Assembly: GCF_044704955.1 (NCBI RefSeq)
Contig: NC_092003.1
Span: forward strand, 4,216,001 to 4,280,000
From: Pristiophorus japonicus
Lineage: Eukaryota
Direction of reading: 5' to 3'
DNA length: 64,000 nt
Shown: in pieces, positions 36,541-59,160 of the stretch
Layout: every line of letters starts with the position of its first letter
How positions within the stretch are numbered: the first letter of the stretch is position 1
Made by a program: the position numbers and the translations under genes
Notes under the pieces: model-generated
Seen by the model: only the letters and a program-made list of their open reading frames with translations
The model's database searches: none
Told to the model about the DNA's origin: nothing

Positions 36541-37472
36541 CAACCTACTCAACCTTTCCTCATAGGTCAACCCCCTCATTTCCGGAATCAACCTAATGAA
36601 CCTTCTCTGAACTGCCTCCAAACCAAGTATATCCTTCCGTAAAAATGTAAACCAAAACTGTACTCAGTATTCCAGGTATGGCCTCACCAATACCCTGTCT
36701 CACTGTAGCAAGAGTTCCCTGCTTTTATACTCCATCCCCTTTGCAGTAAAGGCCAAGATTCCATTGGCTTTCCTGATCACTTGCTGTAACTGCATGCTAT
36801 CCTTTTGTGTTTCATGCATAAGTACCCCCAGGTCCTGCTGTACTGCAACACTTTGCAATCTTTCTCCATTTAAATAATAACTTGCTCTTTGATTTTTTTC
36901 TGCCAAAGTGCATGACCTCACACTTTCCAACATTATACTGCATCTGCCAAATTTTTGCCCACTCACTTAGCCCGTCTATGTCCTTTTGCAGATTTCTTGT
37001 GACCTCACACATTGCTTTTCCTCCCATCTTTGTATCATCAGCAAACTTGGCTACGCTACACTCGGTCCCTTCTTCCAAGTCGTTAATATAGATTGTAAAT
37101 AGTTGGGGTCTTAGCACTGATCCCTGCAGCACCCCACTAGTTACTGATTGCCAACCTGAAAATGAACCATTTATCCCGACTCTCTGTTTTCTGTTCGTTA
37201 GCCAATCCTCTATCCATGCTAATATATTACCCCCAACCCCGTGAACTTCTATCTTGTGCAGTAAGCTTTTATGTGACACCTTGTCAAATGCCTTCTGTAA
37301 GTCCAAATACACCACATCCACTGGTTCCCCTTTATCCACCGTCTTCGTTACATCCTCAAAGAATTCCAGCAAATTTGTCAAACATGACTTGCCCTTCATA
37401 AATCCATGCTGACTCTGCCTGACCGAATTATGTTTTTCCAAATGTCCTGCTACTACTACAATAATGGACTCC
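36541..37472 (-). mobile_element. CR1 LINE RT-domain fragment
   Basis: ORF 36812-37474: SQHGFMKGKSCLTNL, YLDLQKAFDKV, SGVLQGSVL, KFADDTK. Confidence 0.93.
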
Positions 37473-37497
37473 ACATTTTAGGGAGAGATAAATAATA

Positions 37498-43290: not shown

Positions 43291-46200
43291 CCACCAAGAG
43301 TCCTCCTATAATGCTGAAAGTCAAATTAAATGGAGTTCCAGTATCCATGGAGTTGGACACGGGTGCGAGTCAGTCAATAAAGAGCCAGAAGGCTTTCGAG
43401 AAACTGTAGGGCAATAAAGCACAAAGGCCCAAACTGAGCCCGATTAATGCAAAGCTGCGAACCTACACCAAAGAGCTCATACCAGTCATTGGAAGTGCGG
43501 CAGTGAAGGTATCGTATGATGGAGCTGTGCATGACCTATCATTCTGGATTGTTCCAGACAATGGCCCAACGCTATTCGGCAGAAGCTGGCTGAAAAACAT
43601 TAGATAGAATTGAAACAACATCAAAGCACTATCTTCAGTGGATGACGCCTCGTGTGCTCAAGTGCTGAGCAAGTTTCCCTCGCTATTCGAACCAGGCATC
43701 GGCAACTTTGCAGGCGCAAGGTACAAATCCATCTAGGCCCTGATGCACGGCCCGTCCATCACAAGGCTCGGGCGGTTCCGTACATGATGAAGGAAAAAGT
43801 CGAGATCGAACTGGACAGACTCCAACGTGAACGAATCATATCGCCAGTCGAGTTCAACGAGTGGGCCAGTCCAATTGTTCAGGTGTTGAAAAGCGATGGC
43901 ACGGTCAGAATCTGCGGAGACTACAAGGTAACAATTAACCGAGTCTCACTACAAGACCAGTACTTGCTGCTCAAGGCGGATGACCTGTTCGCAACGTTAG
44001 AGGTGGGGGGGGGTCGGTCACCAAGTAGGACCTAACCTCCGCCTACATGACACAGGAGCTGGCTGAATCTTCGAAAAGACTGACGTGCATCAACACATAC
44101 AAAAGGCTGTTTATATACCACAGGTGCCCTTTCGGGATTCGCTCGGCTGCAGCCATTTTCCAGAGAAACATGGAGAGTTTGCTGAAATCTGTTTAGCGCA
44201 CCGTGGTGTTTCAAGACAACATCCTGATCACTGATCGTGACAACATCGAACATCTACACAACCTGAAAGAGGTTCTAAGTCGCCAAGACAGAGTGGGACT
44301 CCGCTCCAAGTGTGTTTTCCTGGCACCAGAAGTCGAATTTTTGGGGAGAAAGATTGCAGCAGACGGCATCAGGCCCACAGACTCAGAGGCCATCAAGAAT
44401 GCACCCAGACCACAAAATGTGACGGAGCTGCATTCGTTTCTGGGACTTTTGGTAACTTTCTACCCGGGTTGAGCACATTGTTCGAGCCTTTGCACATGTT
44501 GCTACATAAGGGTGACGACTGGGTTTGGGGCAAATCTCAAGACACAGCCTTTGAGAAGGCCAGGAACCTGCTATGTTCAAATAAGTTACTTGTACACGAT
44601 GACCCATGTAAACATCTAGTGCTAGCTTGTGACGCCTAATCGTACGGGGTCGGCTGTGTGTTACAGCAAGCTAATGTATCGGGCAACTTCCAACTAGTTG
44701 TATATGTGTCTAGAAGTCTGTCTAAGGCTGAGAGAGCCTATAGTATGGTCGAGAAAGAGGAGTTAGCATGTGTATATATGGGGTTAAGAAAATGCACCAA
44801 TACCTATTTGGACTTCGGTTTGAGCTTGAAACTGACCACAAGCCGCTCATTTCGCTGTTTTCAGAGAGCAAATGTATAAATACCAATGCTTCGTCCCGCA
44901 TTCAAAGATGGGCACTAAGATTATCCGCTTATGACTATGTTATCCGCCACAGACTAGGCACTGAAAACTGTGCCGATGCTCTCAACCGGCTGCCATTACC
45001 CACCACTCGGGTTGAAATGGCGCAGCCAGCAGACTTGCTGCTGGTCATGGATGCTTTTGAGAGTGAGGGGTCACCCATCACAGCTCGCCAAATCAGGACC
45101 TGGACCAGCCAGGGTCCTGTGCTATCATTAGTAAAGAGTTGCATCCTAAATGGGAACTGGTCAGCCGTTCCCGGGGAAATGCAAGGTGAAATTAAGCCGT
45201 TTCACCGACGCAAAGATGAAATGTCTATCCAGTCGGATTGTCTCTTATGGGGTAATCGCGTGGTTTTGCCAAAAAAAGGCCGGAAAACTTTTATACGCGA
45301 CCTACACAGTACCCACCCAGGCATTGTCATGATGAAGGCAATTGTCAGGTCGCATGTTTGGTGGCCCGGTATTGACTTGGACTTGGAGTCATGCGTGCAT
45401 CAGTGCAACACTGGCTCGCAACTGAGTAATGCACCAAGGGAGGCTCCACTGAGTCTGTGGTCATGGCCCTCCAAACCATGGTCCAGGATTCACGTAGATT
45501 TTGCCGGCCCCTTTCTCGGAAAGATGTTTTTAGTAGTTGTGGACACTTACTCCAAATGAATTGAATGTGTAATCATGTCATCCAGCAGGTCCACAGCCAC
45601 CATTGAAAGCCTCATGATCATGTTCGCCACCCATGGCTTGCCCGATGTCCTTGTCAGCGACAATGGACCGTGTTTCACCAGCTCGGAATTTAACGAGTTT
45701 ATGACCCGCAATGGCATCAAGCATGTCAGGTCTGCTCTGTTTAAGCCCGCGTCTAACGGTCAAGCGGAGCGGGCAGTCCAAACAATCATGCAGAGCATGA
45801 AACGCGTGACGGACGGCTCCCTGCAGACCCGCTTGTCTCGCATTCTGCTCAGTTACCGGACGTGACCCCACTCACTCACCGTTAATGAAGAGAGCCCTCA
45901 AAACCAGGCTCTCCCTAGTCCACCCGGATCTTAATGAGACATCGGCAGAACATGTACCTCGATCGCGCGGCTGTTTCACGTGACATTGACGTTAACGATC
46001 CTGTGTTTGTCCTGAATTACGGTCATGGTCCCAAGTGGGTTGCTGGCACTGTTTTGGCCAAGGAAGGGAATAGGGTGTTTATAATCAAACTGTTAAATGG
46101 CCAAACGTGCAGAAAGAATTTAGATCAGACCAAATTGCGATTTACTGACAACCAGGAGCGACTTGAAGAGGACATCACCGTCGACGATCCACCAACACAC

Positions 46201-55545: not shown

Positions 55546-56365
55546 TAAAAAAGAATTTTAAACACAAAAACAAACCAGCATTGAACCTGGTACCTTTCTA
55601 GTTTGTATTATTCATTACTACATCACGCATGAATTTACTTGCTGAGCCATATCCTTGAACATTGATTTAACCCAGTCCCACTCTACAAACATGTACGACC
55701 TGACCATTCAACAAATTCCCTTCCAAATAGTCTCCGCGTGGATCGTTCCCACCTGCCAGTCAAAGAGGGAAGGACACAGAAGAGTGAAAAACTTTGGGCC
55801 GCTCTTGCCTCTCTCCAAGAGCTTAGTTCTTGAATACCATTGGCAGAAGAATGGCAGCGCGTGCACTAAATTGCAATAAAAAGATGATTGCACATCAAAC
55901 CTTGTTATATAAGGCTGTTCTGTGCTGATAGTGTGCCACTGCCACCTTATCGACAGAAAAAAAAATCATATCCTATGCTTTGACATCTAGGACCTGACTT
56001 TTCTGGATCCTTGTGTGCAGCTTTAGGAGGCAGCAGAAAATGGAGTTCTTTCCAGTTGGCTCTCCACTTGTGACTGCTGACAAGCTGCTAAAGAGGGAGA
56101 GCAGTGCTGGGAGGTCAGCAGTCCCTCCATAAGCACCATTCCGTAGCGCTCCAAGATCAATATAAAAATGCTTTACATGGAGTTAGCTGGCTTTTCATAT
56201 ATTCCACCGACCCAGATGGAGAGCAGTGTGAATAAGTTTGCAGTAGAATCTTGTTTCGTCATGTTATAAAACTCATTAACCGACTGTGTACTAAAAGGCT
56301 TTCTCCTTTTCTTCGTGCCCTGACACAAGAATGCAAGAGATATAGACAAACCTTTTGAGAACAAG

Positions 56366-56720
56366 GGGCCGAATTTGGTGCGGCCTGCACCCACAGCCGC
56401 CGAGGATCCGCTGGAAATGTATGTTTTCTGGGCGATTCCTCCGGAACCGCCCATCTGCCGTCCAGGTTCCGCCCGGCGCGAGATTGGTTGCGGAGGGATC
56501 CACTGGCGTGACGTCATGCCGCCCGTCCATGCCGGATGCTGCAAATCGGCCAGTTTGGTGAGGGATGCTGGCCTCAGATCTACCTGCCGCCCGCCAGAAA
56601 GACCGCTCGCAAAAAGCAGGTCTGACCTGGCCGTGAGACGGGCCCCGAGTGCTGCAGCGCTGCACATTACGGCTGTTGTGCAGACGCTCGACCGTCGGGA
56701 GTGGGACTGCTGGAAAAAAG
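56366..56720. mobile_element. Probable Harbinger-like MITE fragment
   Basis: Begins GGGGCCGAATTT, like the TIR at 21476; CpG-rich; right TIR not found. Confidence 0.35.
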
Positions 56721-57504
56721 TTAGCTGGATGTTGCTTTACTTTATTGCTGATGGTCATGTTTAATTTGGATGTGATAAAAGCGACTGGAATGTGTCTAGG
56801 CTGATGGAAATTTTTTTCTTTGACCTTGCTGAAAGACCTTCATTGAGAAGCCCAAAGGCGAAGGCAAAATAATTATGAATAAGTGAAAAGTCACATTTTG
56901 GCCATCCAAGCTAATTAGTTAATTCTGTGACACAGTCCTTCAAGAAGTTCTCAGGAAAGCACTACATATCACATAGAGGGTGAGGGGGTTAGGGTTAGAA
57001 TGATCTATTGTAAGCCTGAGACAGCTGCAGACTCTGACAACATTTGTATGGGAGGAAAAGGGTATAAAGTTACAGCTATTTGACTTTAGGGGCAGCACGA
57101 TTACAGACCAAACTGAGGAAAGACTACGGTCAATAGAACACAGCAAGTGACAAGTGCTGCAGTTTCTCAGTGGCCGACCGTTCAGGTTTCAACGACTAGA
57201 CTGTCACGATCGCCTTGTTAATGTGTCTTTCTTTGTACTGCAAGGAAACGACTTCATAAAATCTGTTCTGATTCGTCACAAAAGACCTGTACCCAGCGTG
57301 CCTTGTGGTAACAGACATAAGTCTATTCTGAGAGATGTAATTAATCTGACACATCGAATAACCCTCACAGCACATAAAGCGTGTTGCGATGGGCTGATGA
57401 CCGTACCAATTATACAGTGCAATCATATGTGGATGGGAAGATATTCCTTATAAAGCAGATGTCCTGAGGGACAGATGTGTGTTTCTCACAAAGCATCACA
57501 CATG

Positions 57505-57753
57505 GTGTGTAAAATAGGAGGTGGGTGGGGTGGCTTGACCCATCCACCTCCACGGAGGTGGGTGGGGGGCACACACCCACCTCCATGGCACGAACCTGGT
57601 ATTGCAGTACTTCCAGGAACGGTGCAGTGGCTCTAGGCCTTTTGGCTAAGAGCATTGGCGCAGAGTGATCCTTGACAGGTGCAGGGTGACCTCTGGCGTT
57701 TGTGATTTGACAAAGAATTGGAAAGATTGGCAACGAATAAATTTTTTTAAAAA
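57505..57753 (+). mobile_element. U2 snRNA-derived retroposon with permuted modules
   Basis: 57594-57626 ACCTGGTATTGCAGTAC(T)TCCAGGAACGGTGCA = U2 3' stem-loop IV; 57636-57651 GGCCTTTTGGCTAAGA = U2 5' stem-loop I; AATAAA and short A-tail; exact 10-bp TSD atcacacatg (57495-57504, 57754-57763). Confidence 0.85.
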
Positions 57754-57799
57754 ATCACACATGATTTTAAAATCAGACACTCACCGAGAGAGAGTCAAC

Positions 57800-58790
57800 A
57801 ATGTGAGTGTATTTGCAACAAAGTTACATAACATTACATTTACAAACATTTACACCACCAACACCCACCGCTCTACCTGGCACCATCACCTCTCTTTCCG
57901 CCCCACCCCACCCCCGCCCCGAAACAATGCGCAAGCCTCTTCCTTGCCCCGCCTACACCATTGCATGCCGCTCCCCTGCCCCTCACTGCTTCTGGTTGAC
58001 AAGGTTGCGCAGGAGGGCAGCGAGATGTCTGCAGACGTGTGCGTCTTGGTGAGAAGGCAGGGGGCGTGACCAAAGGCGCCGGGATCTCTTGCTCCTCCTT
58101 AGCTGTCTGCCTTGAGGGTGTGGGCTCGAGGGCTTGCACTACGCGTCCCGAAGCCACCTCTTGCCTTATTGCCTCAACGGTCTTGGTTGTGCGCTGCAAC
58201 GCAGTAATTGTCCACACTGTCATCGTGCTGCTGGGTGACGGTGGCGATGCTGTCAGCGATCCTAGCCATGGTCTGGAGCATATCGCGACCTATCTGCACG
58301 CTCATCCGTGATAGCTGGACCATCTCCTGAATTGCAGAGAGCGGTGCTGCATCCTCAGGTAGTTGCTCGCTTCTGGTGGGTTCTGGCAACTTGTTTGCCT
58401 TTGTGCCACGGCCTCTGCTCTTGGTGGAGCTTGCCAGTGCGGAGTCCGTTCCAAACCCCAGAGCCCGACGTCGAGGTTCTGTGGACAGATGGCAGGAGGC
58501 TGCTGTCATCCTGTTCCGGCTCCTCGCGCTCAAGGGCCACAAAGTCTGGCCCTTCTCTCTCCTCTCTCTCCGTTGCTCTGGGTGGGAAAGGTGGAAATGG
58601 ATTATCGGGAGGGGGGAAGGATCCGTTGTCTTGAGCTGGGGGCAACATCGGGGTGGGAGACGTTTGGGTCTGACGGCTTCTCTGAAGGCCAGAGGTCGAT
58701 GGTGAGCCTTGATCCGTGCTGTCAGAGTCATCACCTGCACGTAGAGGACAACATTTCAATCGAGGTGGGGGGGGCGGGCGGGCGGTGCTG
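57800..58790 (-). mobile_element. Probable relic of a Harbinger-type accessory (Myb/SANT-like) gene, last exon
   Basis: Acceptor TCCTCTACGTGCAG|G near 58735; acidic/proline-rich low-complexity ORF followed by amphipathic helical MVQLSRMSVQIGRDMLQTMARIADSIATV...; frameshifted; the SANT domain itself is not seen. Confidence 0.4.
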
Positions 58791-59160
58791 GTCAAGCTGA
58801 GATGTGAACCATGCCATCTCACATTCCGCCAGCAAGGAGTTACATCTCTACATGGACACACTAATACTGGGCAACAAAGTGTGCTATCCATTAGGAAACA
58901 GTAGAAAGGAAAAACTGAAGTTTTGGAGCTGGGGGTGGTGAGCACACTGGGGAAGAAAATCATAGATGTTTCCTTGATGCTTTCCTCAGTGGTGTTACTT
59001 GCGATTTGATTTGTTTCTCAGCTCAGCCACAGGTTGAATGTGGCTCACTGGGGAGCACAATTGTTTATTTATGAGGTGAGGGATGTTCAATGTAGCACTG
59101 ATTGCATCAGATTTGAAATCATCTAGTTTAGTGAATTGGGATTATAATTAAGTATAAGTG

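Follow-up and report, generated by a model that had tools for sequence, protein, structure and literature searches.

A young U2/U1-derived short retroposon that shares the nt 38/39 site of U2 genes with a Tx1-type LINE

The feature described here, in a window of 64,000 nucleotides (the whole stretch of DNA that was analysed), belongs to a young short retroposon derived from U2 and U1 that occurs at more than 5,000 places in the genome; this copy is truncated at its 5' end. On the sequence evidence we consider it likely that this retroposon is copied by a Keno-type Tx1 LINE and transcribed from captured U2 promoters.

The limits of the window copy are given in Table 1. The earlier note had described a 249-bp unit between exact 10-bp direct repeats. 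The flanking repeat has paralogous copies elsewhere, and 17 of the 19 examined show an empty site, with a single 10-mer and no element, and the repeats are thus a true target duplication with exact boundaries. The receiving repeat gave 920 first-look candidates at 83-88% identity; the extent listed, derived from 4 loci, is a lower bound, and its open frames (~190-220 aa) had no Pfam or homolog match. The filler between duplication and element is, judged by eye, probably a fold-back copy of the target end. From there, the window copy aligns at 98% to nt 115-340 of a full copy, the first ~114 nt being gone.

Table 1. Features of the window copy and of the repeat that received it (positions in the window)
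Feature	Position	Strand	Basis
5' target-site duplication, 10 bp	57495..57504	+	Exact repeat and empty sites
Filler of 7 nt between duplication and element	57505..57511	+	Not in empty sites; family alignment opens at 57512
5' truncation point, directly 3' of the full element's Sm-type U-run (nt 115/340)	57512..57516	+	
U2 stem III derivative, copy 1, extended to a near-perfect GC-rich stem	57517..57551	+	Host U2 alignment, inverted repeat
U2 stem III derivative, tandem copy 2	57554..57584	+	Inverted repeat
U2 stem-loop IV	57588..57627	+	Host U2 alignment, variant survey of 90 copies
Second U2 5' fragment (stem-loop I, U2 nt 7-29)	57630..57654	+	
Non-U2, non-U1 tail	57656..57737	+	Main hairpin 57658-57698, loop differs among subfamilies
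A/T-rich end: AATAAA, seven T, five A	57736..57753	+	Sequence
3' target-site duplication	57754..57763	+	Exact repeat and empty sites
Older interspersed repeat receiving the element; host sequence, outside the SINE	56363..58884	.	Similarity

Most of the modules that had been read from the window alone were recovered. The two tandem stem III-like stems were confirmed, the second being missing in some subfamilies (single-stem examples L084 and L094). The matches to stem-loop IV and then stem-loop I also held against the host's own U2 gene, with 57594-57627 corresponding to U2 nt 153-186 at 32/34 positions and 57632-57654 to U2 nt 7-29 at 21/23. Two non-U2 hairpins had been proposed; the main tail hairpin stood, and the one at 57699-57714, partly deleted in 6/90 copies, did not stand as a family feature. 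Nor is AATAAA with an A-run a signal of the family, since AATAAA was found at the end of only 13 of 85 copies and the A-run of the window copy is broken by seven T. The predicted fold of the 249-nt unit had a z-score of -5.78, and none of 200 shuffles was equally stable. Rfam matches to a prion pseudoknot and to miRNAs were below the cut-off and were taken as chance. Two fragments of other retroelements were observed elsewhere in the window, one with an RT domain (36812-37477, minus strand) and one with RNase H and a piece of an integrase zinc finger (44744-45559, plus strand).

Copy searches and 5' extension, as proposed in the earlier note, yielded thousands of copies and a full U2 head with a U1 segment. 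The first genome search returned 1,682 candidates, the 40 scored being 97-100% identical, and the true U2 5' end was reached at 9 of 30 extended loci. A diagnostic junction 24-mer gave 5,111 exact matches and a head 24-mer 2,164, with no match for either reversed control. With these junction matches and common derived changes, the prediction of an evolved, multi-copy mobile element rather than a one-off pseudogene was borne out. A sample of 90 copies, the first 90 junction matches along contig C1, unranked by similarity, was studied further. Over 108 positions, 62 of the 90 had no private changes (mean 0.4%); the family is young. The element starts within U2 nt 1-15 in 50 of the 90, and the suggested check for independent target duplications found them, at 6-24 nt, in 57 of 85 copies (5 of the 90 had no readable end).

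A full copy is ~340 nt plus an A-run, begins at U2 nt 1 (+1) and consists of a U2 head (nt 1-29), U1 nt 3-57, an Sm-type U-run, stem III once or twice, stem-loop IV, the second U2 5' fragment, the tail and the A-run. When compared with the Rfam U2 model, three full copies passed the cut-off (46) collinearly with 58.5-65.8 bits. The permuted, 3'-before-5' order of U2 modules reported for the window is thus an artefact: the window copy is 5'-truncated and its second U2 5' fragment remains. The supposed absence of the 5' part and of the Sm site likewise does not extend to the family, given the 50 copies that start at the U2 5' end and a T5-6 run at the Sm-type position in 52 of 52 near-full copies read. 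Element nt 36-89 align to host U1 nt 3-57 with a score of 72, as compared to a maximum of 40 in 500 shuffles and to 30 for the same segment against the U2 gene. In the subfamily resident in the U2 arrays this segment is more diverged (score 33; 3/500 shuffles as high). It is altered in the splice-site pairing end of U1 and in the loop of stem-loop I. In the window's family (family A) the U1-derived sequence replaces the Keno site, the branch-point pairing sequence and the stem II region, but it leaves the U-run, stem III and stem-loop IV in place; the branch-point sequence is retained in 5 of the 50 heads listed. As to a Pol III head, the element has a U2 head and internal T4-T6 runs, and no tRNA, 5S or 7SL match was found in 5 loci or the window stretch. 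The element is short (<500 bp), non-coding, A-tailed and multi-copy with a common structure.

Two older sister families, B and C, carry the same tail as family A. Family C (170 exact matches) consists of a U2 that is nearly intact apart from an 8-nt deletion; the 3' flank of a C19-type gene connects it to U2 nt 7-38, and a 46-nt tail follows. Its second fragment stops exactly at U2 nt 38. Family B (281 matches) is a drifted version. By its sequence, the second U2 5' fragment of the window copy reads as a relic of the nt 7-38 fragment in family C. In the simplest origin, a short A-tailed RNA would have entered a U2 gene at nt 38/39 and later been joined to a whole U2, through either a template switch or the deletion of the spacer that separates tandem units; family A would afterwards have exchanged its branch-point and stem II region for U1 sequence. 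A derivation of the tail from U1 or U2 was rejected for want of a convincing match (scores 13-22), and none of 30 family-C copies had the tail without preceding U2 sequence. In two re-headed subfamilies (L085, L089), U2 nt 1-38 or 1-42 are kept, followed by a jump to the family-A body, which suggests one way in which heads could be added repeatedly, as has been described for SINEU.

The U2 genes form a ~765-bp tandem array, which gave 291 promoter-plus-start matches, and also occupy larger repeats on C9. The junction of A8 with U2 nt 39-58 occurs 86 times (control 0) and was classed, in three cases by eye, as 37 LINE copies, 21 family-A copies in U2 genes, 25 family-A copies in B/C copies and 3 B/C copies. 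In both the SINE and the LINE the A-run is joined to U2 nt 39 and a U2-like head of its own replaces U2 nt 1-38, so that the element lies at +1 behind an unchanged U2 upstream region, the order being upstream flank, element from +1, A-run and U2 from nt 39. This common U2 nt 38/39 junction agrees with the tie to a U2-targeting Tx1 element that the earlier note had put forward. Eighteen of the 21 family-A copies in U2 genes, all of one subfamily but in two array types, stand directly behind the upstream flank, which equals that of intact genes at 260/260 positions (3 units of L073) and 300/300 positions (C9-type unit L100). No PSE motif was recognised upstream, and none was common to the U1 and U2 upstream regions; the term promoter thus rests on position and on identity to intact genes.

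We examined 271 of the 291 array units and found 241 with U2, 13 with the LINE and 17 with the SINE. All 17 SINE units belong to one subfamily with the same head and may therefore stem from two or three insertions amplified by array turnover; the array copies could be progeny, not sources. The commoner head type of the window was found behind the promoter in none of the 271 units. The subfamily at the array keeps a canonical A-U5-G Sm site and makes up 13 of the 90 dispersed copies, 4 of which are within 1.3% of an array copy. Dispersed SINE sites favour G-pyrimidine before A (24/43, as compared to a background of 487/1,985, 25%; p = 1e-5), a preference that resembles U2 nt 36-39 and the window site.

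Several further arrangements were observed at and around these sites. One end of the U2 array (C19:69.62-69.73 Mb; L071-L073, L173-L180) is almost fully occupied, its 17 promoter units leading into 11 LINEs, 5 SINEs and 1 intact U2, and LINE copies here insert in each other's U2-like head, giving tandem pairs. Orphan array units lie outside the main array at C14:76.77 Mb (L303) and C17:74.99 Mb (L304), the former with a truncated A-lineage SINE within the head of a LINE copy directly behind a U2 upstream flank. Insertion at the same base recurs in different copies of abundant repeats (L119/L228, L221/L337, L244/L347/L348 and L116/L383), and 15 of 86 SINE copies, one pair being a segmental duplicate, have a site in common with another copy (controls 0-3).

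The LINE in the same arrays is 5.7 kb long. Its ORF1 has a zinc knuckle and its ORF2, of 1,147 aa, contains endonuclease, RT and zf-RVT domains (Pfam). One array stretch holds 16 LINE copies at 98.7-99.8% identity with 15 unbroken 1,147-aa ORF2 frames. One named protein match was 'transposon TX1 149 kDa protein' at 47%, and no protein match was labelled Keno. Keno and Utopia have as their site the U2 flank from nt 39, as at the junctions here (PMC4640811 and PMC6136364, in the portions available). A 24-mer of the LINE 3' UTR gave 242 matches, which reveals wide off-target insertion. Six of 24 off-target LINE copies occupy the same insertion position as a SINE copy (shifted controls 0-2/24), and 5 of 29 LINE copies adjoin a U2-derived copy. 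The 3' UTR of the LINE and the 3' sequence of the SINE have nothing in common beyond the A-run, contrary to the suggestion that the feature is the 3' UTR of a U2-associated LINE. The common target preference suggests that the SINE is likely mobilised by a Keno-type Tx1 LINE with the same U2 site, the assignment being drawn from this one Tx1-type LINE of the genome.

The LINE 5' UTR also contains, just after the U2-like head (L077), a perfect octamer motif, which could enhance the captured promoter. The 260-300 nt upstream of the two U2 array types contain no such motif; one lies upstream of U1 at -204. Each large U2 repeat on C9 (L101-L112) has a LINE 3' fragment and, a few hundred bases downstream, a second, 5'-less U2 or B-type copy that was amplified with the repeat. 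At L189 (C36) and on C19 near 69.626 Mb, the end of a LINE runs into part of U2, starting at nt 39, and then into a second A-run, possibly a 3' transduction of read-through U2 sequence.

Variation among the 90 copies was compared with the predicted structure. In stem-loop IV no variant is common to four or more copies, apart from a CpG site and the two flanking bases at the end, and stem-loop I, which the fixed search pattern does not cover, shows variation at the bulge alone. Stem substitutions in the main tail hairpin stay paired via G-U, save for one weak loop-closing pair. Common variants occur at 10 of 56 stem positions as compared to 14 of 46 elsewhere, a depletion that is not significant (p = 0.16), and covariation within family A was not significant in the 90 copies either. 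Of the stem covariation that had been anticipated, what stood is one compensatory change between families: a two-sided change in the tail stem separates B/C from A, with the G-U intermediate present (A-U 97, G-C 164, G-U 5 and mismatch 1; n=267). This is one event, and the covariation is thin.

The 5' ends of truncated copies are unevenly placed. As many as 29 of 40 start between -4 and +15 nt of the U-run end, where ~3.5 were expected (p = 2e-22; starts taken from local alignments and good to a few bases), and the truncation of the window copy falls in this pile-up. Families B and C show the same trend weakly (3/7 and 3/8, p about 0.03-0.04, two family-C starts being re-read by eye). A single truncated master is unlikely, since the start points cover 20 nt and the copies have five types of tail loop. 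The footprint of the Sm ring on U2 extends 3' of the U-run (PMC9610496, in the text available), which fits a block to reverse transcription. However, the subfamily with the canonical Sm site contributes 0 of 12 copies to the pile-up versus 29 of 78 in the others (p = 0.008), which makes RNA structure an equal rival. Because of this result, and because the commonest head is without the A before the U-run, the Sm ring as sole cause is a candidate that we put at somewhat less than an even chance.

These observations suggest how the element may propagate. U2 promoters are wholly upstream of the gene (PMC4494074, as far as its text was available), so that a dispersed copy would be without a promoter and a copy at nt 38/39, with its head replacing nt 1-38, would regain one. 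Pol II would start at +1 from the external snRNA promoter of an array-resident copy and, with no 3' box after the element's U2 unit, would read through the tail and the genomic A-run. ORF2 of the LINE would nick U2 at nt 38/39 or, at other places, a relaxed G-pyrimidine-A-(A)-T site, and would reverse-transcribe the SINE RNA from its A-run. Insertions on target would renew the promoter-bearing sources, and insertions off target would give rise to dispersed, duplication-flanked copies. In family A, selection may have favoured a splicing-inert snRNA scaffold that would no longer be cut at nt 38/39, and a bound Sm ring or RNA structure would cause the truncations just 3' of the U-run. A bolder and tentative version, which we regard as possible yet rather doubtful as a whole, would make the element a self-renewing, U2-homing snRNP-mimic parasite that has taken the promoter, disarmed both splicing-active sequences and erased the cut site of the LINE, and that still acquires an Sm ring, the footprint of which would be preserved in thousands of truncation points.

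The same SINE and LINE partner could instead be supplied from dispersed copies read through from unrelated upstream promoters, with the array copies as dead ends. Such read-through was proposed by Kojima for crocodilian SINEU (PMC4494074, in the part available), and the dominant subfamily is indeed behind a U2 promoter in 0 of 271 units. We consider this unlikely, because the 5' end lies at U2 nt 1-15 in 50 of 90 copies, no common 5' extension was seen by eye beyond the target duplication, dispersed copies are nearly identical to the array-resident subfamily and one family-B copy (L058, a single case) carries 5 nt of the U2 upstream flank. The 5' ends at nt 1-15 and the dispersed copies of the array subfamily favour the cycle with sources in the array. 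If the array copies were a host-functional variant snRNA and the dispersed copies its pseudogenes, the 18 units behind intact upstream regions in two array types and the canonical A-U5-G Sm site of the array subfamily would be accounted for. Yet in every unit a U2 gene is broken at the retrotransposon site and a long A-run closes the insert, and both splicing-active pairing sequences are altered; the chance that this explanation holds is slight.

Independent chimeric retro-pseudogenes, formed by repeated template switching between U2, U1 and other RNAs, would be in line with the re-headed or chimeric copies L085, L089 and L303 and with a U1 segment that looks refreshed in some subfamilies. However, thousands of copies have the same junctions, target duplications and diagnostic changes absent from host U1 and U2, and the subfamilies form a series whose common internal junctions contradict an independent formation, which makes this very improbable. 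An RNA of permuted U2 modules, or the 3' UTR of a U2-associated LINE, finds support in the window copy alone, where stem-loop IV precedes stem-loop I. We attach almost no credence to it: full copies are collinear with U2 from nt 1 and begin at U2 +1 after a duplication of their own, family C explains the origin of the second fragment, and the LINE 3' UTR is unrelated.

By the class features tested, and compared with SINEU by description, the window family is SINEU-type. In the available text of PMC4494074, the crocodilian SINEU-1C/1H, SINEU-2 and SINEU-3 are likewise short and non-coding, with U2-/U1-derived 5' parts, an A-tail and internal oligo-T; they too show repeated addition or replacement of snRNA sequence, tandem copies that sandwich a target duplication, and a Tx1-type partner without a tail in common with the LINE. 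The same text gives a Mariner transposon (Mariner-N4_AMi) as the SINEU target, whereas the window family uses U2 genes at nt 38/39, the targets seen for it being U2 genes, B/C copies and positions in repeats. Further differences from that description are the copies at +1 behind U2 upstream regions, where SINEU transcription was left open, the intact co-resident LINE, and the number of copies (at least 5,111 versus 1,058 for SINEU-2). Kojima (2015) found no SINEU outside crocodilians (PMC4494074, part available), and in the open literature, Repbase/Dfam aside, we found no account of an snRNA-derived SINE in any other group, nor of a SINE in U2 arrays (including PMC5381603 and PMC7245038, in the parts available). 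In its pieces the window family matches the U1/U2 variants and the 3' flank of its own host, a sign of an origin independent of crocodilian SINEU; set apart by description and by these host-specific variants, the family looks unlikely to descend from SINEU-1/2/3.

The LINE resembles Keno in its AP-type endonuclease, RT, zinc-knuckle ORF1 and identical 3' flank from U2 nt 39, and the SINE resembles it in using the same U2 site (PMC4640811 and PMC6136364, in the portions available); site and domains, rather than an RT tree, make the LINE a putative Keno-type element. Unlike Keno, the window element is non-autonomous and has no 3' sequence in common with the LINE. No Keno-dependent SINE was found in the open literature searched. 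Utopia has the same U2 insertion site and reportedly a relaxed specificity in crocodilians, but a restriction-like endonuclease in place of the AP-type of the LINE here (PMC4640811, portion available). Ordinary U2 retro-pseudogenes and snRNA-L1 chimeras (PMC4494074, in the text available) are alike in snRNA sequence, A-tail and target duplications; they are, however, one-off copies of the real snRNA, whereas the window family has its derived junctions and substitutions in thousands of copies.

New here are SINE copies at U2 nt 38/39, the Keno site, which is also used by an intact Tx1-type LINE. As snRNA genes have no internal promoter, the description of SINEU named the mode of transcription of an snRNA-headed SINE as an open question (PMC4494074, in the available text). 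This genome offers a testable answer in an element at the Keno site of U2 genes, at +1 behind the upstream region. The partner LINE found with it is intact and very young, the sister families document how a near-intact U2 became the mosaic step by step, and the SINEU class appears to have arisen here independently. If the pile-up reflects a bound Sm ring, the copies in the genome preserve the imprint of a protein that sat on the RNA as it was being inserted. If the reading as an snRNP mimic is true, no earlier SINE would have had its promoter source, partner LINE, stepwise origin and protein coat all legible in a single genome, and SINEU would have arisen a second time, independently.
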